From Sphingomonadales bacterium (GTDB lineage Bacteria > Pseudomonadota > Alphaproteobacteria > Sphingomonadales > Sphingomonadaceae), in assembly GCA_043782885.1 (NCBI GenBank), contig JAYVZY010000031.1:1-30922 (forward strand): a stretch of DNA of 30,922 nucleotides, given 5' to 3'. Positions 14,528 to 29,917 of this stretch are shown in pieces. The first letter of the stretch is position 1; each line of letters starts with the position of its first letter. The notes under the pieces are model-generated. The model was not told the DNA's origin, did not search any database, and saw only the letters and a program-made list of their open reading frames with translations. A program made the translations under genes and the position numbers.

Positions 14528-14540
14528 TATGGAGAGAGCG

Positions 14541-17192
14541 ATGTGGAATCGGACGAAAAGAGTGCGGCTGAAAGCAGCGTTGGTGCTTAGTGTGGCACTG
14601 GTGGGCACCTCCACACTCCAGGCAGAGCAGGTGCAATCGCGTGAGATTAGCTCGCTGAACGAGGGTTGGCGTTTTCGTTATGGCGACGCGCCGGACGCGG
14701 TGACGGGCACTTCATTCGATGACGGCGCTTGGGCGGTCGTAAACGTGCCGCACACATGGAACCGTATCGGCGAATATCGCACGACGCGTTCAGCCGATTC
14801 GAACGACAAGCAAGGCGTGGGCTATTATCGGCGACACCTGAAAGCGCCCGCGAGCTTGAAGGGGCGGCGTGAGTATCTGCAATTTGATGCGGTCGGCAAT
14901 ATCGCCAATGTCTGGGTGAATGGTGTGCATTTGGGCACGCACAAGGGCGCTTTCTCGCGCTTCCGTTTTGATATTACCGATGTGTTGAAGGCCGGTGCGG
15001 ACAATGTGATTGTCGTGAAGGCAGACAACAGCAAGCCCGCTTTGGGGAGTTCCACGCAGGATGTGATCCCATTAGGGGGCGATTTTTTCATCTTCGGCGG
15101 CATCTATCGCGGCGTGTCACTGATCGATGCGGCGGATGTCGGGATTGATCTTCTCGATCATGGCGGGCCGGGGGTTTATGCGCGGGCATTGAGCGTTGCG
15201 CCTGACAATGCAGAAATAAATGTCCATGCGCGACTACGTAATCTGGGCTTTCGCTCACAGGCTTTGGCTGGTGAAATCATTGTTCGCGACGACGCAGGCA
15301 ATACGATCGTATCCAAGTCCTGGCACAGAGCAGTCGGCGCCAAGGCCATAGTGGAAACGGACAATGTGCTGGCGTTGACCAAGCCGCATTTGTGGAACGG
15401 TCGCACCGACCCCTATCAGTATTCAGTTTCAATGACGGTATTTGCCGGCAAGCGAAAAGTCGATGAAATGACCCAGCCGCTCGGCATCCGCTCGTTCAAA
15501 ATCGACACCAACACGGGCTTCTTCCTCAACGGCCAGCATCTCGATCTTCACGGTGCCTCGCGCCACCAAGATCGTCCTGTGAAAGGCTGGGCGCTCACCC
15601 CCGCTGATCATGCCGAGGACATGGCGATTATGGCTGATATGGGTGCGAATACGGTACGGATGGCGCATTATCAGCATGCGCCCGAATGGATGGACGCAGC
15701 GGATAAAACTGGCATGGTCGCTTGGGGCGAAATCCCTTATGTGAATGCGGCGTCATGGGGTGACGATGAGGGCACGCCAGCGCTGCACGCCAATGCGCGC
15801 GAGCAGCTCATCGAGCTGATCCGGCAGAATTACAATCACCCGTCGATCATGATGTGGTCGGTGGGCAATGAGGTGGATATTGGCGCAGCGTTCGGGCGCG
15901 GCGCACCGGCGCATTCGCGTGCACTACTCGCGGAACTCAACACATTGGTGCATCAGGAAGACCCCTCGCGCCCGACCACCTTTGCTGATTGTTGCGAGGA
16001 AACCAACCCGTTGCCAGGCAAGCAGAAGGGCGAGTTGCTCGCGGGCACGACCGATGTGATGGGCTATAACCGCTATTATGGCTGGTATTATGATGCGCCT
16101 GCCAAAATGGGCGAGATGATGGATCATTTTCACGCGCTCCATCCGGCGCTGCCGATGTCTGTTTCGGAATATGGCGCGGGTGGCGCGCTGTCGCAGCATA
16201 GCGATAATGTGTTGGGCGGGCCGATCAGCGCCTTTGGCCGTCCGCACCCTGAGGAATATCAGAGCTATTATCATGAAGAAAATTGGAAACAGCTCAAAGC
16301 GCGACCCTATATCTTCGCCAATTGGGTTTGGAACATGTTCGATTTCTCGTCCGACCTGCGACAAGAGGGCGACGCGATTGACATCAACGACAAGGGCTTG
16401 GTGAGCTATGATCGCAAGACCAAGAAGGACGCCTTCTATTTTTATCGCGCCAATTGGTCGGCCGAGCCGACGCTGCACATAACGGGGCGGCGGTATGTTG
16501 ATCGGGCGTATGCGGTGAATGACATTCGGGTGTATTCCAACGCCGAGAATGCCACGCTGGCGCTCAATGGTGTGGCACTTGGGAGCCAGCCTTGCGCCGA
16601 TCATATTTGTGTCTGGCGGGGTGTCATGTTACTTCCGGGGACCAATGCGCTCGAGGCAGTGGCAACAATCGGCGGCAAATCGGTCAGTGACCGGATAGTG
16701 CTTAACGGCCCCGATCCAAGCAATGGTGTGCGGATAGACGCGGGTGACCTTGGGGCGCACACGACCACTGATGGCCACCGCTTTGGCTCCGACGCCTTCT
16801 TCACAGGCGGCACCGCGAAGGTGCTCAACGTTGCGGGGTTTGGGCATGACCGCAACGCACCGCGTAAGGTGGTATCAGGCACGGCGTCACCGGAGCTGTT
16901 TGAGGGGTGGCGCGAAGGGGCGTTTAGCTATGATATTCCGCTGCCCAATGGCACTTGGACCGTTACGTTGCACAGCTTTGAACCCGATTCCACTCGGTCC
17001 GCAACGCGAGCGTTTGATGTGAACGCCAATGGCCAACCGGTGTTGACCAATTTCAATCCGGCGACGGCAGCAGGCGGCGTGTTGAAGGCCGTATCACGCA
17101 GCTTTCCGGTCAAAATTGAAGGCAATAAAGTGAATCTCACCTTTTCCGGTGCGGCTGTGATTGGCGCAATCGAGATTTTGCCCACACATTAA
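14541..17192 (+). CDS. Secreted GH2 glycoside hydrolase, beta-glucuronidase-like, with C-terminal malectin-like domain
   Basis: Signal peptide; acid/base WSVGNE, nucleophile SEYGAG, NRYYGWY and NDKG uronate-binding motifs; malectin-like tail (FSYDIPLPNG...FDVNANG); GGAGAG RBS before ATG 14541. Confidence 0.88.
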   Translation: MWNRTKRVRLKAALVLSVALVGTSTLQAEQVQSREISSLNEGWRFRYGDAPDAVTGTSFDDGAWAVVNVPHTWNRIGEYRTTRSADSNDKQGVGYYRRHLKAPASLKGRREYLQFDAVGNIANVWVNGVHLGTHKGAFSRFRFDITDVLKAGADNVIVVKADNSKPALGSSTQDVIPLGGDFFIFGGIYRGVSLIDAADVGIDLLDHGGPGVYARALSVAPDNAEINVHARLRNLGFRSQALAGEIIVRDDAGNTIVSKSWHRAVGAKAIVETDNVLALTKPHLWNGRTDPYQYSVSMTVFAGKRKVDEMTQPLGIRSFKIDTNTGFFLNGQHLDLHGASRHQDRPVKGWALTPADHAEDMAIMADMGANTVRMAHYQHAPEWMDAADKTGMVAWGEIPYVNAASWGDDEGTPALHANAREQLIELIRQNYNHPSIMMWSVGNEVDIGAAFGRGAPAHSRALLAELNTLVHQEDPSRPTTFADCCEETNPLPGKQKGELLAGTTDVMGYNRYYGWYYDAPAKMGEMMDHFHALHPALPMSVSEYGAGGALSQHSDNVLGGPISAFGRPHPEEYQSYYHEENWKQLKARPYIFANWVWNMFDFSSDLRQEGDAIDINDKGLVSYDRKTKKDAFYFYRANWSAEPTLHITGRRYVDRAYAVNDIRVYSNAENATLALNGVALGSQPCADHICVWRGVMLLPGTNALEAVATIGGKSVSDRIVLNGPDPSNGVRIDAGDLGAHTTTDGHRFGSDAFFTGGTAKVLNVAGFGHDRNAPRKVVSGTASPELFEGWREGAFSYDIPLPNGTWTVTLHSFEPDSTRSATRAFDVNANGQPVLTNFNPATAAGGVLKAVSRSFPVKIEGNKVNLTFSGAAVIGAIEILPTH

Positions 17193-19788: not shown

Positions 19789-20709
19789 TCAAAGCGGAAC
19801 GTAGGGTGCGTAGGTTGTTCGCGGCGGTATTGCCCCCGGATGCATGACCACCCATCCGGCGAGGCGATGCCCCTGCATTGCCGCGTCTGCGACGTTCGCC
19901 CCAGAGAGCCGTGCGCCAAGATAGCCGCCATTGAATGCATCGCCTGCCCCGCTCGTGTCTAGGGGTGATAGCACGCGCGGTGGCGCAATAATCTGCCCGT
20001 TGGGTAGGCGGCAGCCGTTTGCACCGAGCTTTACCAATGTCTCATCGCATCCCAGCCCCTGCCAGTGTGCCGCTACGGCGACGGCAGAGCGTGCGCCAGC
20101 GAGCAAGGCCTCATCCTCAAGCGTCGGCAGCCCAATATCTGCACATGCGAGCGCCGCGTCTCGTGCTGCGATGGCTTCCGCTGGCGCGGCCCAGAGGCGC
20201 GGGCGGTAATTGCCATCGAACACGATTTTCCCACCAGAGCCACGCACGTGCTTGCACAGCGCGAACAGCTTCTCGCGGGCAGTGGGCGCAAGAATAGCGA
20301 GGGTGATGAGTGAATATGCGATCACATCTGCTTGGGCTACTTCTGCCACAGCTGCTTCACTCCCGCTCAAATCAAACATCTGTCGCGCCGCACTGTCCGA
20401 GCGCCAATAGGCAAAGTTGCGTTCGCCGTGTGCATCGGTGGAAATGGCGTAAAGTCCGGTGGTGCGCAGCGGGTCAGTCAGCACCAGCGATGTGTCGATT
20501 CCTTCCGCCCGCCACCGCGTCTTCAAATCGTCGCTAAATGGATCCGCACCCAGAGCGGTAAAGTAAGCAACATCATGCCCCGATCGCGCCATGTGGATTG
20601 CGGTATTGAGCGTATCGCCACCATAACCCATCCGCCAAATGTTGGCGTCATTGATCCCCTGCGGCCGAGATAACTCCAGCATTGCCTCACCGATAAAGAC
20701 TATCCGCAC
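19789..20709 (-). CDS. kdgK: PfkB-family sugar kinase, 2-keto-3-deoxygluconate kinase
   Basis: IGEAMLEL, GGDTLNTA, F.YWRSDSAAR, FDGNYRPRLW and DTSGAGDAFNGG. True start placed at GTG 20709; the longer ORF call overlaps manD. Confidence 0.85.
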   Translation of the reverse strand: MRIVFIGEAMLELSRPQGINDANIWRMGYGGDTLNTAIHMARSGHDVAYFTALGADPFSDDLKTRWRAEGIDTSLVLTDPLRTTGLYAISTDAHGERNFAYWRSDSAARQMFDLSGSEAAVAEVAQADVIAYSLITLAILAPTAREKLFALCKHVRGSGGKIVFDGNYRPRLWAAPAEAIAARDAALACADIGLPTLEDEALLAGARSAVAVAAHWQGLGCDETLVKLGANGCRLPNGQIIAPPRVLSPLDTSGAGDAFNGGYLGARLSGANVADAAMQGHRLAGWVVMHPGAIPPRTTYAPYVPL

Positions 20710-20728
20710 CTGCTGACCTGTCCCACTT

Positions 20729-21937
20729 TCACCAATTCCACATCGTGCCATCTTCCAGCCGCGCGACGGGGAGATAGGCGGGCTTATACGGGTATTTCGC
20801 TGCCAGAGCTTCATCAATGTCCACGCCGTGTCCCGGTTTTTCGCCGCAGAACAATTCGCCCTTGTCAAACCGATAGTCGTGCGGGAAGACCGAGTCGGTT
20901 TCGGGCGTGTGGCGCATATATTCCTGAATACCGAAATTGGGCACCCATGTGTCGAAATGCAGCGCGCAGCCCATCGTGACTGGCGACAGATCAGTTGCAC
21001 CGTGGCAGCCGGTACGCACCTGATACAGCGCCGCAAAATCAGCGATCCGCCGCATATGCGTAATGCCGCCCGCACCAACGATGGTGCAACGGATATAGTC
21101 GATCAACTGGTTCTGGATCAGATCTTTGCAATCCCAGATCGTGTTAAAAATCTCGCCCACCGCGAGCGGCGTTACGGTGTGCTGGCGCACTAATTTGAAT
21201 GCCTCTTGGTTTTCAGCTGGAGTGCAATCTTCCAACCAGAAAAGCTGGTAAGGCTCCAGCATCTTGCCGAGATTGGCGGCTTCTTGCGGCGTGTAACGGT
21301 GGTGACCGTCGTGCAGCAAATGGTGATCGAAGCCGTAGGTCTCACGCAGCTTCTCAAACAGCTTTGGAACGGTGTTGAGCGCTTTGCGCGTGTCCCATCC
21401 GGTCACAGATGGCAGTGCGGCGTCAGCAGGTTCATAGAACAGTTTGCCACGGCCCACGCCATAGGCATCTTTGATTCCGGGCACGCCCGTTTGCGCGCGG
21501 ATCGCCTTATATCCCATGTCGATATACTGACCGACGGCCTCGACTGTCTCGGATATGTCGCTGCCATTGGCATGGCCGTAGACCATGATGCCATCGCGCG
21601 ATCGCCCGCCGAGAAGATCGTAAAGCGGCATTCCGGCCATTTTCGCCTTGATGTCCCAGAGTGCCATATCGACGGCAGCGATGGCGCGCATCGTCACCGG
21701 CCCACGCCGCCAATAGGCCCCACGATAAAGATACTGCCAGATGTCCTCAATGCGGCGCGGATCCATGCCAATCAGGCACGGAATGACATGACCTTCGAGA
21801 TAGGACACGATCGAGAGTTCGCGCCCGTTGAGTGTCGCATCGCCAATGCCATAGACACCCTGATCCGTCTCGATCTTCAGTGTCACGAAATTGCGCCCCG
21901 GGCAGGTCACGATCACTTTGGCGGAATGAATGCGCAT
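20729..21937 (-). CDS. manD: D-mannonate dehydratase, enolase superfamily (ManD/RspA)
   Basis: [20 protein letters not shown]147, Y159, D210/H212, E236, E262, CHGATD (A314) and EDGTMWNW; closely resembles Novosphingobium ManD as I recall it. Confidence 0.95.
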
Positions 21938-22037: not shown

Positions 22038-22820
22038 ATGTCATCCGAAAAAAATGCTGCAAAAATTGAAATCGCCAGTGGATCGCAAGATCGGCTTTAC
22101 CAAGAGTTGGCACGCAGCCTGATTGGCGAGCTGAGTTCGGGGCGTTATGCTGTGGGGGATCGGCTCCCCGCCGAGCGCGAGCTGGCCGTGGACTATAACG
22201 TCAGTCGCCCCACCGTGCGCGAGGCGGTAATCGCGCTAGAGGTGCAAGGCTTGGTCGAAGTGCGTGTGGGTTCCGGTGCCTATGTAAAACGCATTCCCGG
22301 CAACAACGATACACCGGGCTTCAATGTGACCGCGTTCGAGCTCACAGAAGCGCGGTTGTTGATTGAGGGGGAAGCTGCGGCATTGGCGGCAACGCAGATC
22401 ACGGTGGCAGAGCTCGCCACGCTTGAAACGCTGATCGAGGATATTGCAACCGAGAATCAGACACAAGGCGGACAAGAAGAAGCAGATCGAGCCTTTCACT
22501 TGGCCATCGCACACGCCACGCGCAACACCGCACTCTATAATTCGATCGAAGAATTGTGGCGCTTGCGCAAAACCTCTCCCGAAAGTGCGCTGCTGCATGA
22601 GAAGGCGCGCACGGCCAATGTAAAGCCGGTGGTAGATGAGCATTCGGCCATTTTGGAGGCGTTGCGCGCGCATGATCCCGCCAAAGCCCGTGCCGCGATG
22701 CGCACCCACCTCAGCGCGGTGATCGAAAGCCTATTGTTCGCGACCGAAGAGGCGGCGATTGCAGAGGCGCGGAAGGCCGCCAATGCCAAACGAGCGCGCT
22801 ATGCGCGGGCGACCGCGTGA
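22038..22820 (+). CDS. GntR/FadR-family transcriptional regulator (UxuR/ExuR-like role)
   Basis: wHTH GDRLPAERELA...VSRPTVREA...GSGAYV and FCD domain (ADRAFHLAIA, EHSAIL, AMRTHL). Confidence 0.93.
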   Translation: MSSEKNAAKIEIASGSQDRLYQELARSLIGELSSGRYAVGDRLPAERELAVDYNVSRPTVREAVIALEVQGLVEVRVGSGAYVKRIPGNNDTPGFNVTAFELTEARLLIEGEAAALAATQITVAELATLETLIEDIATENQTQGGQEEADRAFHLAIAHATRNTALYNSIEELWRLRKTSPESALLHEKARTANVKPVVDEHSAILEALRAHDPAKARAAMRTHLSAVIESLLFATEEAAIAEARKAANAKRARYARATA

Positions 22821-23794
22821 TGCTCACGCGAAGATATCTTATCGGTTCGGTCGGCCTTTCGGGCTTGGTTCTCTCCGCAGTGGCACGCGCTGCGGATCCT
22901 TTGCGCGAGGCGACAATATTTGAGCGCGTCATGCTCTGGCCCAACGGCGCGCCGGAACCAGTTCCCCATGGGTTGACGCAGGCGTTTGTAGAGCGATCAC
23001 CTGCACCAGATACAGTCAAGGATCGCGCCTTAAAAGGAGTTACGGAGCCGTTTATGGATGCGTATCGCCCACCCCAATCGAACGGCGCGGCGCTTTTGAT
23101 CATGCCCGGCGGCGGCTATCGGCGTATGGTGTGGGACAAAGAGGGCATTGATATCGCGAGCTGGTTTATGTCGCGCGGTGTGACCTGCTTCATCCTCGGA
23201 TATCGCCTACCACCGGAAGGATGGGCGTCCGGTGCTGATGCACCGCTCGCTGACGCCCAGCGGGCCATGCGGCTCATCCGGCGAGATGCAAAAAAATGGG
23301 GTATTGATCCGTCGCGGATTGCGGCAATCGGGTTTTCGGCTGGCGGACATCTGTGTGCAAATCTTGCAGCGCAGTTTGATCGACTCGCCGCGCCGCACAT
23401 TGATGCAGCGGATGCGCTCACAGCGCGCCCCTGTTTTGCGGCGCTAATTTATCCGGCAATCTTGCTTGAGTCACTTAACGGTGCTTTTCCAGCTGGTGAA
23501 ACTCTGTTCGGCAAAAATAGACCAGTTGCAGAGCTGGTGCAACACAGTCCACATCTGCATGTGCCCGATACTGCGCCACCCCATATTATGATACAGGCGG
23601 AAGACGACCCCACCGTGGCACCGGACAATGTTCTGGCGCTTCGATCCGCGCTCAAAGCTAAGAAAATCGTCGTTGAAACGCATATGTTTGAAAAAGGCGG
23701 GCATGGCTTTGGCATTCGCTTCACCACCAATCTCCCTGTTGCTGATTGGCCGCAACGGGTGCTCTCTTTTGGCCAAAATCATGGATGGCTTTGA
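22820..23794 (+). CDS. Tat-exported alpha/beta hydrolase, carbohydrate esterase-like
   Basis: Twin-arginine signal LTRRYLIG, PGGGY oxyanion motif, GFSAGG nucleophile, DPTV and GGHGF catalytic Asp/His; TGATG coupling to gntR. Confidence 0.85.
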   Translation: MLTRRYLIGSVGLSGLVLSAVARAADPLREATIFERVMLWPNGAPEPVPHGLTQAFVERSPAPDTVKDRALKGVTEPFMDAYRPPQSNGAALLIMPGGGYRRMVWDKEGIDIASWFMSRGVTCFILGYRLPPEGWASGADAPLADAQRAMRLIRRDAKKWGIDPSRIAAIGFSAGGHLCANLAAQFDRLAAPHIDAADALTARPCFAALIYPAILLESLNGAFPAGETLFGKNRPVAELVQHSPHLHVPDTAPPHIMIQAEDDPTVAPDNVLALRSALKAKKIVVETHMFEKGGHGFGIRFTTNLPVADWPQRVLSFGQNHGWL

Positions 23795-25195
23795 ATGACA
23801 CGCCAGTTATCGCTCCACCCCGATCGGCTATTTCCTGCGGAACCATCTACGCGCGCCATTACCCGGCGGCTGTATGCCGAGGTGGCAGCGTTGCCGATTG
23901 TCAGCCCGCACGGCCATACTGATCCTGAATGGTTCGCGACGAACGCAAGCTTTGGCAATGCCTACGAACTGCTGTTGAAGCCCGATCATTATGTGTTTCG
24001 GATGCTCTATTCGCAGGGTGTGCCGCTGGAGGCGCTGGGCATTGGCAAGTATACGGTTGATCCGCGCGCAGCTTGGAAACTGTTGGCGGAACGCTATCAT
24101 TTGTTCAGGGGCACGCCTTCGCGGATGTGGCTAGATTGGGTGTTTGCCGAGGGCTTTGGGCTGGATGTGCAGTTTGATGCGACGACGGCAGATCATTATT
24201 ACGATGTGATCACCGAAAAATTGGCGACCGCTGCCTATAAACCCCGCGCGCTGTTTGAGCGGTTCAACATCGAGGTGATCGCAACGACGGAGTCGCCGAT
24301 TGATGATCTCCGGCATCATGCAGCAATCAAAAGCAGTGAATGGCGCGGCAAAGTGATCACAGCCTACCGCCCTGATCCCGTGGTTGACCCTGAGTTTGAG
24401 GGATTCTTGGATAATCTCAAAACCCTGTCCACTCTGACGGGCGAAGACAGCTTCTCGTGGCAGGGCTATCTCGCCGCGCATCGCAAGCGGCGGGCGTTTT
24501 TCGCCACGATGGGCGCAACCTCAACCGATCACGGCCACCCGACCGCGCTGACGGCTGACCTTTCCGCGACCGAGGCTGAGGCGCTGTTCAAACGCGTCAC
24601 GTCAGGCGCGCCAACAGCCCAAGACGCCGAGCTGTTCCGCGCGCAGATGCTTACCGAAATGGCGGGGATGAGTCTGGAAGACGGACTGGTGATGCAAATT
24701 CATCCCGGCTCTTTCCGCAACCATAACGCACAGGTATTCGCCACATTCGGGCGTGACAAAGGCGCGGATATTCCCACAGAGACGGGCTATGTGCATGAAC
24801 TTCGGCCACTACTCAACCGCTACGGCAATGCGGCGGGGCTGACGATCATCCTCTTCACACTCGATGAAACCGCCTATGCGCGCGAACTGGCACCGCTGGC
24901 GGGGCACTACCCTGCGCTCAAGCTCGGCCCGGCATGGTGGTTCCATGACTCGCCAGAAGGGATGCGCCGATTCCGGCTGAACATGACGGAGACGGCAGGT
25001 TTCTATAATACCGTGGGCTTTAATGATGACACGCGCGCCTTCATGTCCATCCCCGCGCGGCACGATATGGCGCGGCGGATCGATTGTGGGTTCCTTGCGG
25101 GACTGGTGGCCGAGCATCGGCTGGAAGAATGGGAAGCAGCGGAATTGGCAGTTGATCTGAGCTATGGATTGGCAAAGCGGGCGTATCGGTTGTGA
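23795..25195 (+). CDS. uxaC: Glucuronate isomerase
   Basis: SPHGHTDP, PDHYVFRML, TDHGH, MQIHPG, GPAWWFHDS, FNDDTRAF and ARHDMARR. Confidence 0.96.
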   Translation: MTRQLSLHPDRLFPAEPSTRAITRRLYAEVAALPIVSPHGHTDPEWFATNASFGNAYELLLKPDHYVFRMLYSQGVPLEALGIGKYTVDPRAAWKLLAERYHLFRGTPSRMWLDWVFAEGFGLDVQFDATTADHYYDVITEKLATAAYKPRALFERFNIEVIATTESPIDDLRHHAAIKSSEWRGKVITAYRPDPVVDPEFEGFLDNLKTLSTLTGEDSFSWQGYLAAHRKRRAFFATMGATSTDHGHPTALTADLSATEAEALFKRVTSGAPTAQDAELFRAQMLTEMAGMSLEDGLVMQIHPGSFRNHNAQVFATFGRDKGADIPTETGYVHELRPLLNRYGNAAGLTIILFTLDETAYARELAPLAGHYPALKLGPAWWFHDSPEGMRRFRLNMTETAGFYNTVGFNDDTRAFMSIPARHDMARRIDCGFLAGLVAEHRLEEWEAAELAVDLSYGLAKRAYRL

Positions 25196-26574
25196 GATTG
25201 TCGTCGGATACGTTAGCGCATGTTCTCGCCGACGTCGCCCACCCCCAATACGACCGCGCCTCCCAGAAGGTGGGCATTGTCCATTTCGGCATCGGCGCGT
25301 TCCATCGCGCGCATCAGGCCTGCTATACCGATGCGGCGATGAATGCGGGAGAGAGAGATTGGGGCATCATTGGAGTCTCGCTGCGTTCACCAGATGTCGC
25401 TGGACAGATGAACCCGCAGGATGGTCTTTATACGGTCACCGAGCGGAGCGGGAGCGGGGTGGCCCTCAGGATCATCGGCAGCGTTCAACGCGTCCTGGTG
25501 GCCTCCCAGGAGCCTTCAGGGGTGGTTGCTGCTCTTGCATCACCTAACACGCACATCGTCAGCTTTACGGTGACGGAAAAGGGCTATTGTCGTGCCGCGA
25601 ATGGGTCGTTAGATATGCGGCTTGCGGGTGTGGGCAGCGCCTATGCCTTTCTCGCCGCCGGCTTTGCCAAGCGCAAGGCAGCGGGGTTGTGCGGCCTTAC
25701 GCTCCTCAGTTGTGACAATCTGGCCAATAACGGCGCGCAGCTTGAGCGGTTGACAACCGAATATCTGGAACACGAAGCCCCCAATCTCCTCGAGTGGTTC
25801 GCCGAAGAATGCACGTGTCCTTCGACGATGGTGGATCGCATCGTCCCCGCCACAACATCGGAAGACCGTACCGCGCTTGCCGCCGCCCTCGGCATCACCG
25901 ATGATGCCGCCGTCGTGACGGAACCCTTCAGCCAATGGGTGATCGAAGACAAATTTGCCGGCCCGCGTCCGAGTTGGGAAGTCGGCGGCGCGCAGTTCAC
26001 GTCCGATGTTGCGCCGTTTGAAACCGCGAAATTGCGTATGCTCAACGGTGCGCATTCGGCGCTGGCCTATCTCGGGTTAGAACGGGGGCACACTTACGTT
26101 CACCAAGCCATTGCCGATCCGGCGCTGCGTCCCCTGATCGAAACGCTGATGCGCGACGAGGCCGCCACCAGCTTCACTCCCGCAAATGGGCAAGATTTGG
26201 CGAGCTATCAATCCGCCCTGCTCACCCGCTTCGCCAACCCCGCGCTCAATCACAAGCTCATCCAAATCGCGATGGATGGCAGCCAGAAAATTCCGCAGCG
26301 CTGGCTAGAGACGCTCAGCTTTCACCAGCGCAATCACCGCCAATGCCCCATGATCCACCGCGCACTCGCCGCGTGGATCAGGCATGTGCGCGGCAATGGC
26401 GCGCCGGTGAACGACCCGATGGCCGCGCCACTCGCGGCGCTCTGGGCAGAAGCGGGACAGGCTGGCATCGTCGAGGCGCTGTTTGGCGCGCGCGGCATGT
26501 TTTGCGCGCATTATGTTGCGAACGAGGACGCAAAAGCGCTCCTTCAACAATGGGTGAATGGGCAGGATGTATGA
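25192..26574 (+). CDS. uxuB: D-mannonate oxidoreductase (mannitol dehydrogenase family)
   Basis: HFGIGAFHRAHQ, TVTEKGY, LSCDNL, MVDRIVP, EPFSQWVIED, KLRMLNGAHS and DGSQKIPQR; GTGA overlap with uxaC. Confidence 0.9.
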   Translation: MRLSSDTLAHVLADVAHPQYDRASQKVGIVHFGIGAFHRAHQACYTDAAMNAGERDWGIIGVSLRSPDVAGQMNPQDGLYTVTERSGSGVALRIIGSVQRVLVASQEPSGVVAALASPNTHIVSFTVTEKGYCRAANGSLDMRLAGVGSAYAFLAAGFAKRKAAGLCGLTLLSCDNLANNGAQLERLTTEYLEHEAPNLLEWFAEECTCPSTMVDRIVPATTSEDRTALAAALGITDDAAVVTEPFSQWVIEDKFAGPRPSWEVGGAQFTSDVAPFETAKLRMLNGAHSALAYLGLERGHTYVHQAIADPALRPLIETLMRDEAATSFTPANGQDLASYQSALLTRFANPALNHKLIQIAMDGSQKIPQRWLETLSFHQRNHRQCPMIHRALAAWIRHVRGNGAPVNDPMAAPLAALWAEAGQAGIVEALFGARGMFCAHYVANEDAKALLQQWVNGQDV

Positions 26575-27833
26575 TGAAAATAAAAGGCCTGCGTTGGTGG
26601 ATCATCTCGCTGATCACATTGGGCACCATCGTCAATTATCTTGCGCGCAACACGCTGAGCGTGCTCGCGCCGCAACTGCAAACACAAATGCACGTCACAA
26701 CGGCGCAATACAGCTATGTCGTCGGCGCGTTTCAGCTCGCTTATACCGTGATGCAGCCGGTGTGCGGCTTTGTGGTGGATCGGCTCGGGCTGCGGCTTGG
26801 CTTTGCGCTGTTTGCCGTCGCTTGGTCGCTCGCCAATATGGCGCATGCGCTGGCGACGGGGTGGATGGGGCTGGCGGCTTTCCGTGGCTTGCTTGGCATG
26901 AGCGAGGCGGCGGCGATTCCGTCGGGCGTCAAAGCCTCGTCGATGTGGTTTCCGGCGCGCGAACGGTCGATGGCGGTAGGCTGGTTCAATCTCGGCACAT
27001 CACTGGGCGCGATGATCGCGCCCGTGCTCGTGGTGGCCGTCACGCTTGCGTATAACTGGCAGATGGCGTTTATCGTCACCGGCGCGATGGGGCTGGTTTG
27101 GGCGGCACTCTGGTATGCTTTCTATCGCGATCCGGCAGACCACCCGGCATTGGGCGATGCGGAGCGCACGCTCATCATGACGGATCGACCACCGGTGCGG
27201 AAGTCAACACTAACGCCGCTCCAATTGCTGCGCACGCCAAAATTCTGGACAATCGCCATCCCGCGCTTCCTCTCTGAGCCCGCTTGGCAGGTATTCAGCT
27301 TTTGGATTCCGCTCTATCTCGCGCACGAGCGGGGCATGGATTTGAAGCATATCGCTGCCTTCGCTTGGCTGCCATTCCTCGCGGCGGATGCGGGTGCGCT
27401 TACGGGCGGCTATATCGCGCCGTTTTTGATCAAGACTTTCGGCGTACGAATCATCCCCTCGCGCGTCTATGGCGTTGCGGGAGCGGCGTTGTTGATGATT
27501 GGGCCCGGCTGCATTGGGCTGGTCGCCAGCCCCTATATGGCGATTGCGCTGTTCTGCGTAGGCGGCTTCGCGCATCAAACGCTTTCGATCCTCATCAACA
27601 CGCTCACCGCCGATGTCTATGCCCCTGAGGACGTCGGTATGGCGAATGGCTTTGTCGGGCAAATGGGCTGGATTGGCGGGCTTTTGTTCTCGCTACTCAT
27701 CGGGCAATTGGCGGATAAGGTCGGCTTTGGCCCGCTGTTCGGCGCGCTGGGGGTGTTCGATCTGATTGGTGCGGCGGTTTTGATACTGGCGATTAAACAG
27801 CTCGTCCCCTTTGGAGCGGAGTCCAAGGCGTGA
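26571..27833 (+). CDS. exuT: MFS hexuronate transporter, ExuT-like
   Basis: KGLRWWII...NYLARN, about 12 hydrophobic segments, WFPARERS, RFLSEPAW and FWIPLYL; ATGA overlap with uxuB places the start at 26571. Confidence 0.88.
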   Translation: MMKIKGLRWWIISLITLGTIVNYLARNTLSVLAPQLQTQMHVTTAQYSYVVGAFQLAYTVMQPVCGFVVDRLGLRLGFALFAVAWSLANMAHALATGWMGLAAFRGLLGMSEAAAIPSGVKASSMWFPARERSMAVGWFNLGTSLGAMIAPVLVVAVTLAYNWQMAFIVTGAMGLVWAALWYAFYRDPADHPALGDAERTLIMTDRPPVRKSTLTPLQLLRTPKFWTIAIPRFLSEPAWQVFSFWIPLYLAHERGMDLKHIAAFAWLPFLAADAGALTGGYIAPFLIKTFGVRIIPSRVYGVAGAALLMIGPGCIGLVASPYMAIALFCVGGFAHQTLSILINTLTADVYAPEDVGMANGFVGQMGWIGGLLFSLLIGQLADKVGFGPLFGALGVFDLIGAAVLILAIKQLVPFGAESKA

Positions 27834-29917
27834 GGGTGGCGAAGCTCTCCGCACCGCCGCTGTTCCATATTGCTGCGCACGAAGGCGCCATCGTCACACT
27901 CGCGTCGGATACCGTGGCGGTCGCGCATGTATTTGTGTTGGAAGAAGACATCATCCGTCTGATGCTGCTCCCCGGTGGAAACATCAAAAGCCCGCCAAGC
28001 TGGGCGATTGCGCCGGGGATGGAGGACATCACCGAACCGGGACGCGACCGGATGAGTGTTGAGGACTTTGCCTGCCCTGCGTTCAAGCTAGCCGAGACGG
28101 AAGGGCAATTGACCATCGAGACTGCGCGCCTGCGTCTTGAAATTACCGTCAACGGCTTCCACTGCCGCTGGTTCCAGTGCGAAGGTGAGGCGTGGCGGCT
28201 GATCGCGCAAGATCGCCCGACACAGGCCTATAATTTTGGCTGGTGGGACGGCAAGGTTCACCATTATGTCGCGCGCGAACCCGGCGAACGCTATTATGGC
28301 TTGGGCGAGCGGAGCGGGGCGATAGATCGAGCTGGACGCCGCTTCCGGCTCGCGAACATCGATGCTATGGGCTATGACGCGGCGCGCACCGATCCGCTCT
28401 ATAAATCGATTCCCTATCTGCTGGTGGCGAATGCGGATGGCGCGTGCCACGGCGCGTTCTACGACAGTATGGCCGATGGCTTCATCGATTTGGGGCAGGA
28501 GCTTGACAATTATCACGGCCCTTATCGGCATTTTTGCGCCGATCATGGCGATTTTGACCTGTATATGATCGCGGGGCCAGACCCGCTTTCCGTCACGAAG
28601 CGATTCACATGGCTGACGGGCAAACCGGCCCTCATGCCGCGATGGTCGCTCGGCTATTCCGGCTCGACGATGAGCTATACCGATGCGCCCGATGCGCAGG
28701 CGCAAATGGGGCAGTTCCTTGCAAAACTGGCGGAATATGGCATCGGCTGCACATCGTTCCATTTATCCTCGGGCTACACATCAATCGGCGATAAACGCTA
28801 TGTGTTCAATTGGAACCGCGACAAATTCCCCGATCCAGCCGGATTTGTGCGAAGCTATATGCAGGCGGGTGTGCGGCTGGTGGCGAACATCAAGCCCGCT
28901 CTGCTGACCGATCATCCGCGCTATGCCGGTTTGGCAGCGGAGGGATTGTTCGTGCACAATCCCGATGGCGAACCAACTGAAATCCAATATTGGGACGCAC
29001 TCGGTTCTGCGGTTGATTTCACCAATCCAAGGGCATGCCGCTGGTGGCAAGCCCAAGTGAAAACTGCCCTGCTCGACCTTGGCATAGTCGCGACATGGAA
29101 TGATAACAACGAGTATGAAGTGTGGGACTCGCTTGCCCTCACCCACGGGTTCGGCACGTCACGGCCGATAATCGAAGCTCGCGCGCTGCAACCCTTGCTA
29201 ATGATGCGCGCGTCGCGCGCCGCGCAGATGGCATATGCTCCCGACGCTCTGCCGTATGTTGTCACTCGCTCTGGCATGGCGGGACTCCACCGTTATGCAC
29301 AAACGTGGACGGGCGACAACCACACGAGTTGGGAAACACTACGCTTTAACATCAAGATGGGGTTGGGACTCGCGCTCTCTGGCATATCAAACATTGGCCA
29401 TGACGTGGGCGGTTTTGCAGGGCCAAAGCCCGATGCCGAACTCTTCCTGCGTTGGCTGCAAGCGGGCATACTGATGCCGCGCTTTAGCATCCACAGCTGG
29501 AACGAGGATGGCTCAGCCAACGAGCCTTGGATGTATCCCGAAATCCTCCCGAAGGTGCGCATGCTCATGAAGCTGCGCGAGAAGCTAGAGCCGTTTCTCT
29601 ATGACCTGATGCAACGCTATCACTCCGACTACGAACCCATCAGCCGCCCGATCTGGTTGAATTACCCTGAAGATGCAGAGGCCTGGGCGGATGGCGATGA
29701 CCATATGCTCGGGGCCGATCTGATGGTTTCCCTGGTCGTGGAGGAGGGAGCAATTACTCGCGCCGTGCGTTTCCCGGGCAAGGATGAATGGATCAATGTC
29801 TGGACAGGCGAGGTATATGGTGGCGGGAGCATTGCAATACTTCCCGCTCCGATTGACGGCCCGCCCTTGATGTTCCGGCGCGCGGGATCAGATATAATGC
29901 TAAATCTCGTACCGTAG
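27830..29917 (+). CDS. GH31 glycoside hydrolase, no signal peptide, specificity unknown
   Basis: YGLGERSG, DPLYKSIPY, nucleophile WNDNNE (D425), acid/base WTGDN (D496), GHDVGGF and PRFSIHSW; GTGA overlap with exuT. Confidence 0.9.
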   Translation: MRVAKLSAPPLFHIAAHEGAIVTLASDTVAVAHVFVLEEDIIRLMLLPGGNIKSPPSWAIAPGMEDITEPGRDRMSVEDFACPAFKLAETEGQLTIETARLRLEITVNGFHCRWFQCEGEAWRLIAQDRPTQAYNFGWWDGKVHHYVAREPGERYYGLGERSGAIDRAGRRFRLANIDAMGYDAARTDPLYKSIPYLLVANADGACHGAFYDSMADGFIDLGQELDNYHGPYRHFCADHGDFDLYMIAGPDPLSVTKRFTWLTGKPALMPRWSLGYSGSTMSYTDAPDAQAQMGQFLAKLAEYGIGCTSFHLSSGYTSIGDKRYVFNWNRDKFPDPAGFVRSYMQAGVRLVANIKPALLTDHPRYAGLAAEGLFVHNPDGEPTEIQYWDALGSAVDFTNPRACRWWQAQVKTALLDLGIVATWNDNNEYEVWDSLALTHGFGTSRPIIEARALQPLLMMRASRAAQMAYAPDALPYVVTRSGMAGLHRYAQTWTGDNHTSWETLRFNIKMGLGLALSGISNIGHDVGGFAGPKPDAELFLRWLQAGILMPRFSIHSWNEDGSANEPWMYPEILPKVRMLMKLREKLEPFLYDLMQRYHSDYEPISRPIWLNYPEDAEAWADGDDHMLGADLMVSLVVEEGAITRAVRFPGKDEWINVWTGEVYGGGSIAILPAPIDGPPLMFRRAGSDIMLNLVP

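Follow-up and report, generated by a model that had tools for sequence, protein, structure and literature searches.

At present, α-glucuronidase activity is placed in the glycoside hydrolase families GH4, GH67 and GH115. These enzymes release α-linked D-glucuronic acid (GlcA), which is the reaction proposed here for a member of GH31, but they are unrelated to GH31 in fold and mechanism, with GH67 and GH115 being inverting and GH4 being NAD-dependent. In Geobacillus, the GH67 enzyme AguA is embedded in a uxaC/uxuB/kdgK cluster, as is the GH31 gene described below. Within GH31, recognition of an anionic sugar is known from the sulfoquinovosidases such as YihQ of E. coli (subfamily GH31_13), whose published sulfonate-binding motif is Q/E-R-W-Y; this sulfonate recognition arose at least twice within the family (PMC12780224). 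The GH2 glucuronidases, in turn, recognize the carboxylate via an N-x-K triplet (bioRxiv 10.1101/2022.04.25.489410). Here, a GH31 gene is analyzed that lies on contig JAYVZY010000031.1 of the assembly GCA_043782885.1 from a Sphingomonadales bacterium (Sphingomonadaceae); the whole stretch of 30,922 nucleotides that was analyzed is referred to as the window. The gene is labeled 'alpha-glucosidase' in the source annotations. It probably encodes a cytoplasmic retaining α-D-glucuronidase, which would act on a small imported α-glucuronide, most likely glucuronosyl-glycerol.

The main evidence for this reading comes from the gene neighborhoods. One genome per prokaryotic species was scanned, which yielded more than 586 relatives, and the best 80 loci (53–76% identity) were studied, the neighbors being classified by tblastn with the window proteins and by Pfam checks. 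These loci stem from sphingomonads, Caulobacterales, Azospirillum, Rhizobium, Burkholderia, Paraburkholderia, Caballeronia, Rhodoferax, other Betaproteobacteria, Verrucomicrobia and Bryobacteraceae. Directly upstream of the GH31 gene, 60 of the 80 loci encode an ExuT-like transporter of the major facilitator superfamily (MFS), six a tripartite ATP-independent periplasmic (TRAP) transporter DctPQM and four an ATP-binding cassette (ABC) system with a LacI regulator. At nine loci the nearest upstream gene is manD, uxaC, uxuB or kdgK, and one locus begins at the GH31 gene and holds no upstream data. Both the TRAP systems and the ExuT family transport organic anions. Furthermore, genes of the uronate pathway (uxaC, uxuB, manD, kdgK) lie within 10 kb in about 27 of the 80 loci. 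The unit ExuT-like-GH31-porin occurs at 24 Burkholderia loci. A glycosidase, a permease and an outer-membrane porin (uidC) are likewise combined in the uidA-uidB-uidC system of E. coli for β-glucuronides, which differs in the opposite anomer, the glycoside hydrolase family and the transporter family.

In the transporter tree, the GH31-adjacent copies group together, apart from E. coli ExuT and from the second ExuT paralogues of Sphingomonas sp. HT-1 and Caulobacter sp. Root343, and this separate clade fits a shifted cargo of these transporters. In Novosphingobium sp. SG707, a second ExuT paralogue (L027:6981-8210) next to GH2 genes lies within a few kb of the arrangement ExuT-like-GH31-glpK-glpD and branches just outside the GH31-linked transporter clade.

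The linkage to uronate catabolism is also found in distant relatives of 37–50% identity. In Vibrio mediterranei, UxuA and a GntR regulator are followed by DctPQM-GH31 and then by UxuB, UxaC, KdgK and Eda. A metagenomic contig encodes UxuB, UxaC, ManD, KdgK and Eda together with DctQM-GH31-DctP, and an RNase Y-encoding genome has the order GntR-DctPQM-GH31-UxuA-SDR-UxaC, where SDR stands for a short-chain dehydrogenase/reductase. A first-pass annotation made from the sequence of the window had suggested checking homologues that carry K-R-Y-V-F for co-occurrence with uxaC or exuT, and the outcome is clearly positive, both in the 80 loci and in these members from other phyla. In three distant members, a gene for an AP_endonuc_2 protein (a xylose-isomerase-like TIM barrel) follows or neighbors the GH31 gene (L097:11495-12388, the P0131 contig and L103:12917-13753). 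For several other representatives, the contig was not long enough to give a view of the neighborhood.

As controls, six GH31 loci outside the clade were used, namely paralogues of three orthologue-bearing genomes and the second GH31 of the window genome. Within about 9.5 kb of these six loci, none of ExuT, UxaC, UxuB, ManD and KdgK was found. The second GH31 of the window genome (C167:1760-3682), which is 32% identical, is canonical with L-D-I-D-Y and W-N-D-M-N-E and lies on a short contig without visible uronate genes.

The link to glycerol is the second line of evidence. At 14 of the 80 loci, glpK and/or glpD, often together with a DeoR regulator (glpR), stand beside the transporter-GH31 pair, and in the GH31 tree these 14 loci occupy five or more distinct positions. 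In Rhodoferax sp. BLA1, glpK and the DeoR regulator are on one strand and glpD-dctP-dctQ-dctM-GH31 on the other. Sphingomonas sp. HT-1 and S. elodea show glpK / glpD-glpR-MFS-GH31, three Novosphingobium species glpK / glpD-MFS-GH31, and one Caulobacter and two Caballeronia carry their glp copies downstream. In Sphingomonas formosensis, a single cluster holds glpK, glpD, uxuB, uxaC, manD, kdgK, the MFS gene and GH31. If there is about one glp locus per genome, the chance of glp in a random 20-kb window is well under 1%, this being an estimate and not a measured value. Glucuronosyl-glycerol is the simplest candidate substrate, because it yields both glucuronate and glycerol.

A precedent for reading glp adjacency as the mark of a glycosyl-glycerol substrate is provided by one of the controls. 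Here, Novosphingobium guangzhouense encodes a 44%-identical orthologue of YihQ with the E-R-W-Y motif, an enzyme hydrolyzing sulfoquinovosyl-glycerol, near glpK/glpD. Some 6 kb separate this YihQ-type gene (L118:8703-10700, contig 73) from the glpK/glpD pair, which is the second one of the genome, and it is accompanied by an MFS transporter, a TonB receptor and a LacI regulator. This suggests that the species has two distinct GH31 modules linked to glp, each for its own anionic glycosyl-glycerol. The first-pass annotation had named glucuronosyl-glycerol first among its candidate substrates, and the 14 glp-linked loci as well as this glp-adjacent sulfoquinovosyl-glycerol hydrolase lend it independent support. 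A hydrolase of glucosyl-glycerol was rejected, since this substrate is neutral, yet 66 of the 80 loci have anion-type carriers (ExuT-like or TRAP) together with the linkage to uronate genes.

The aglycone could also be other than glycerol. An α-glucuronidase for methylglucuronic acid-α-1,2-xylose (MeGlcA-α-1,2-Xyl) aldouronic acids, for GlcA-α-1,2-inositol from the glycosylinositol phosphorylceramides (GIPC) of plants and fungi, or for fragments of α-glucuronosyl-ceramide is rather unlikely. It would fit the locus of the window, where glp genes are missing while a TonB receptor, a GH2 with the N-x-K motif of glucuronidases and an exported esterase are present. Two distant members (46 and 44% identity; L098:11383-14072 and L100:6399-9008) adjoin a PIG-L/LmbE-type deacetylase with uxaC nearby, which hints at a substrate containing N-acetylglucosamine and GlcA such as a GIPC-type head group; one of the two is also located beside a GDE_C/MGH1-like hydrolase. 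Another distant member is found beside GFO/IDH/MocA oxidoreductases, and one has a PF04185 phospholipase C-type gene upstream. On the contrary, the glp genes are the only recurrent genes related to an aglycone, and no catabolic genes for xylose or inositol were seen next to the orthologues. The TRAP and MFS carriers favor a very small substrate, and a ceramide-specific role is at odds with a clade that reaches far beyond the sphingomonads. Given the receptor, the GH2 and the esterase, other α-glucuronides may nevertheless be used as well in the organism of the window.

The protein itself is a member of GH31. The 695-aa open reading frame matches the three GH31 domains of Pfam (PF13802 at 1.9e-32, PF01055 at 2.6e-80 and PF21365 at 9.8e-16), corresponding to an N-terminal β-sandwich, a (β/α)8 barrel and a proximal C-domain. 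An AlphaFold2 model from 36 homologues has a mean predicted local distance difference test (pLDDT) score of 94.3, and Foldseek gives template modeling (TM) scores of 0.83–0.87 to GH31 structures. The first-pass annotation had described the gene as coupled to exuT, free of a signal peptide, equipped with both catalytic Asp residues and non-canonical at the W-x-D-I-D-Y block, and this description holds throughout. The start codon, a GTG at 27830, shares bases with the stop codon TGA of the MFS gene before it (GTGA), and the MFS protein is indeed ExuT-like (Table 1). In place of a signal peptide, residues 11-18 are modeled with confidence as a strand of the N-terminal domain, and the homologues begin at the same residue. 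D425 in W-N-D-N-N-E and D496 in W-T-G-D-N are both invariant and are aligned with the catalytic pair of YihQ and glucosidase II. Most homologues have about 800 aa, and the window protein is devoid of their distal C-terminal domain. A truncated pseudogene was rejected: the 695-696-aa homologues of one lineage share its C-terminal end, and the DNA downstream of the window GH31 holds no remnant of the distal domain, so that the short form is natural.

The active site is remodeled in comparison to canonical GH31 enzymes. A HMMER search of 1.8 billion cluster representatives returned 1850 matches at E<=1e-30, and the 114 best full-length matches were aligned, of which 104 have the S-S-G block and constitute the clade and ten are canonical. 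This clade comprises more than a hundred 50%-identity clusters from Proteobacteria, Verrucomicrobia, Acidobacteria, a likely Firmicute and fungi, including Vibrio and a dothideomycete. S314, G315, R323, N353, K355 and N426 are invariant in all 104 clade representatives and in 81 of 81 orthologues. In the same alignment, the ten canonical enzymes mostly have D, I, D, Y or R, I, D or E, and M at the positions of S313, S314, G315, R323, N353, K355 and N426, respectively. The window protein reads F-H-L-S-S-G-Y and W-N-D-N-N-E where GH31_1 enzymes read W-x-D-I-D-Y and W-x-D-M-N-E. In a HMMER alignment to mouse glucosidase II, S313 faces the conserved Asp of W-L-D-I-E-H, N353-I-K355 faces I-V-D, and N426 is paired with the Met directly behind the nucleophile.

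With the canonical GH31_1 enzymes (glucosidase II, the human acid α-glucosidase GAA, MalA), which are the best matches in sequence and structure (E of about 1e-60, TM 0.85), the protein shares the residues on the O2/O3 side of the -1 subsite, i.e., W423, R480, D496, D525, F529 and H555 in window numbering. In contrast, S313/S314 stand where the canonical enzymes have the Asp of W-x-D, N353 and K355 where they have the Ile and Asp of I-V-D-P, and N426 where they have the Met behind the nucleophile; the loop after strand 3 is longer by two residues. In the model, S313/S314 follow the strand 309-312, N353-K355 end the strand 349-354 and D425 follows the strand 421-424; since each sits at the end of a barrel strand, all are located on the catalytic face of the barrel. 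The replaced positions are presumably equivalent to D404, I441 and M519 of GAA, as judged from the GAA sequence. In GAA, these three residues are listed as direct contacts of the -1 sugar (PMC5653652). The cations R323 and K355, the polar N353 and N426 and the loss of the β3 Asp are what would be expected for a C6 carboxylate. They are also reminiscent of the Arg/Lys ligands in other glucuronidases and of the N-x-K in GH2 glucuronidases, the likeness of the invariant N-I-K to the latter being a resemblance only.

An ordinary neutral α-glucosidase or α-xylosidase that merely travels with hexuronate genes would explain the 'alpha-glucosidase' annotations and the fact that the best structural matches are neutral GH31 enzymes. 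It would also be in line with the matches to the NCBIfam models of MalA (281 bits) and of the α-xylosidase YicI (NF007940, 212 bits). These matches are below the curated cut-offs of 800 and 606 bits, which leaves the protein outside GH31_3, and they do not exceed 26% identity. Since, in addition, the canonical -1 residues are replaced by invariant ones, and the uronate linkage extends across phyla and three transporter types but is absent for canonical paralogues, a neutral enzyme is very improbable. No chain of the PDB and no Swiss-Prot entry is closer than 26% identity to the window GH31, so that the clade is without a characterized member in these databases.

A close parallel is YihQ, which was compared on its E. 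coli K-12 sequence by profile-profile alignment (hhalign) and independently by MAFFT L-INS-i. The YihQ string and numbering given in the first-pass annotation are right on this sequence, which has Q288, R301, W304, D405, D472 and Y508. Of the equivalences drawn there, R323 with R301 and F326 with W304 stand in both alignments. The third one, H311 with Q288, was ruled out by both, as H311 lies opposite W286, and Q288 is either gapped or paired with S313. Both alignments further pair F529 with Y508, D425 with D405 and D496 with D472. The two enzymes have in common the fold, the catalytic Asp pair and the loop Arg after strand 3, they are cytoplasmic and coupled to a dedicated permease, and the substrate would in both cases be a glycerol glycoside of an anionic C6-modified glucose from a membrane lipid. 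On the other hand, the profile identity is only about 25%, W304 and Y508 are replaced by F326 and F529, Q288 lacks a clear counterpart, and the window enzyme adds N353, K355 and N426 and sits among glucuronate catabolism rather than sulfoglycolysis.

Due to the common Arg and the repeated evolution of sulfonate recognition within GH31 (PMC12780224), a third type of GH31 sulfoquinovosidase was considered, and one distant member adjoins a PfkB kinase and a DeoC/LacD-family aldolase. Nevertheless, from the GH31_13 motif (Q288, R301, W304, Y508) the Arg only is kept, with W and Y of the R-W-Y triad both being Phe, and the score with the NCBIfam YihQ equivalog is far under the curated cut-off. Neither the window nor the 80 orthologue loci contain sulfoglycolysis genes or a sulfoquinovose cluster; uronate or glycerol genes are found instead, and N. 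guangzhouense has a separate true YihQ orthologue. The sulfoquinovosidase reading was ruled out on motif and context, and its probability is close to negligible.

The uronate could also occupy the +1 subsite. In this case, a neutral α-sugar (Glc, Gal or Xyl) would be cleaved from a glucuronate-containing disaccharide or head group, with the uronate bound by R323/K355. This would explain the linkage to anion transporters and uronate catabolism equally well, and Glc-α-1,4-GlcA-diacylglycerol lipids are known from Brevundimonas. Three points make such an enzyme improbable. The changed residues correspond to -1 contacts of the canonical enzymes (the equivalents of D404, I441 and M519), catabolic genes for hexoses or pentoses are not recurrent nearby, and the products glycerol and GlcA would need a second GlcA-freeing enzyme, none of which is encoded nearby. 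With glucuronosyl-glycerol as substrate, GlcA must fill the -1 subsite.

Several observations weigh against the preferred assignment as an α-glucuronidase for glucuronosyl-glycerol. An Arg aligned with R323 is also present in the neutral glucosidase II (G-K-R-Y), and therefore the Arg alone is not diagnostic. The locus of the window lacks glp genes, GlpK being encoded on contig 162, and its transporter is 50% identical to a carrier of monosaccharide hexuronates, so that free glucuronate may be carried here as well. Two distant members (P0209, P0195) have no uronate genes nearby. Furthermore, the related loci are not phylogenetically independent, and the specificity of the clade is predicted from sequence and gene context. 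The weight of the gene neighborhoods still supports the proposal of the first-pass annotation that imported α-glucuronides are cleaved, as a predicted activity.

Based on these data, the following course can be envisaged. The most likely cargo, 3-O-α-D-glucuronosyl-glycerol, would originate as the deacylated head group of glucuronosyl-diacylglycerol lipids. In the window, the exported esterase might perform the periplasmic deacylation of the parent lipid, upstream of the GH31 step. Import would occur by the coupled ExuT-like symporter, or by TRAP or ABC systems in other lineages. In the cytoplasm, D425 would attack C1, with D496 serving as acid/base. The C6 carboxylate would be accommodated in a pocket of Ser313/Ser314, Asn353, Lys355 and Asn426, which stand for the canonical Asp, Ile, Asp and Met, while the loop after strand 3 would present Arg323 to it, as YihQ presents its Arg301 to the sulfonate. 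The freed glucuronate would enter the route of UxaC, UxuB, ManD and KdgK, which are encoded in the same regulon, and the freed glycerol that of GlpK/GlpD.

The features of the window are listed in Table 1.

Table 1. Genes of the glucuronate regulon in the window and sequence elements of the GH31 protein (positions refer to the window, residue numbers to the GH31 protein).
Feature	Position	Strand	Basis or remark
GH31 gene, 695 aa, cytoplasmic	27830..29917	+	natural short form without distal C-terminal domain
β3 strand and loop F-H-L-S-S-G-Y-T-S-I-G-D-K-R-Y-V-F-N-W (aa 310-328)	28757..28813	+	substitutes the canonical W-x-D-I-D-Y block
R323, invariant Arg aligned with YihQ R301; putative carboxylate ligand	28796..28798	+	hhalign, MAFFT
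N353-I354-K355, end of strand β4 (canonical I-V-D); putative second cationic/polar C6 ligand	28886..28894	+	invariant
W-N-D-N-N-E with nucleophile D425; N426 in place of canonical Met	29096..29113	+	alignments
D496, general acid/base in W-T-G-D-N	29315..29317	+	paired with D472 of YihQ and with the motif of glucosidase II
ExuT-like MFS, anion:cation symporter type, translationally coupled to GH31	26571..27833	+	50% identity to E. coli ExuT, full length
UxuB-like fructuronate reductase	25192..26574	+	domain and NCBIfam matches
UxaC glucuronate isomerase	23795..25195	+	NF002794, 573 bits (cut-off 387)
Exported α/β-hydrolase esterase (PaeX-like / BD-FAE)	22817..23794	+	domain matches
GntR/FCD regulator, ExuR-like	22038..22820	+	domain matches
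ManD D-mannonate dehydratase	20729..21937	-	NF043051, 735 bits
KdgK 2-dehydro-3-deoxygluconokinase, start approximate	19789..20710	-	PfkB, NF052444

The esterase carries a signal of the twin-arginine translocation (Tat) type, T-R-R-Y-L-I-G ... A-R-A/A-D, and the serine motif G-F-S-A-G-G. Genes for carboxylesterases or α/β-hydrolases recur near GH31, as in the window and at L012:16050-17747, L026:12479-13477 and L103:11583-12920. In a deltaproteobacterial metagenome-assembled genome, a PF04185 phosphoesterase (phospholipase C / acid phosphatase; L050:6629-8416) lies divergently upstream of a UxaC-like-GH31 pair. Further upstream of the regulon genes, the window encodes a TonB-dependent receptor and a GH2 enzyme (14529-17192, + strand) with C-terminal DUF4982 and malectin domains. 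This GH2 is 27% identical to the β-glucuronidase (GUS) of E. coli and has the triplet N-D-K where GUS has its carboxylate motif N-K-K (N-x-K). It is probably a β-glucuronidase, and the regulon would therefore cover both anomers. A GH67 domain was not found in the 80%-complete genome of the window.

Glucuronosyl-diacylglycerol is a phosphorus-sparing anionic lipid of plants, algae and many bacteria and a major lipid under phosphate starvation. A review of sulfoquinovose cycling from July 2026 treats it only as a product of the plant SQD2. The first-pass annotation had noted no established α-glucuronidase in GH31, and within the literature searched, to which this absence is limited, neither such an enzyme nor a catabolic pathway for glucuronosyl-glycerol or glucuronosyl-diacylglycerol was found.

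More tentatively, the whole clade with S-S-G, R, N-I-K and D-N-N-E could consist of α-glucuronidases, and together with the importers, the exported esterases, GlpK/GlpD and the isomerase pathway it could constitute a widespread, so far undescribed route consuming the head group of glucuronosyl-diacylglycerol. For a carboxylate, such a route would parallel the path from sulfoquinovosyl-diacylglycerol via sulfoquinovosyl-glycerol to sulfoquinovose, and in both an Arg at this position would have been enlisted to bind the anion.

If this is true, the GH31 clade gains a function, and α-glucuronidase activity would be new to GH31 according to the literature searched. Glucuronosyl-diacylglycerol would gain a catabolic pathway that can be tested, and the signature residues would allow these proteins to be annotated as such in place of 'alpha-glucosidase'. 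Furthermore, the clade would represent a second example of C6-anion recognition in GH31 beside the sulfoquinovosidases, which bears on how specificity has evolved in this family.

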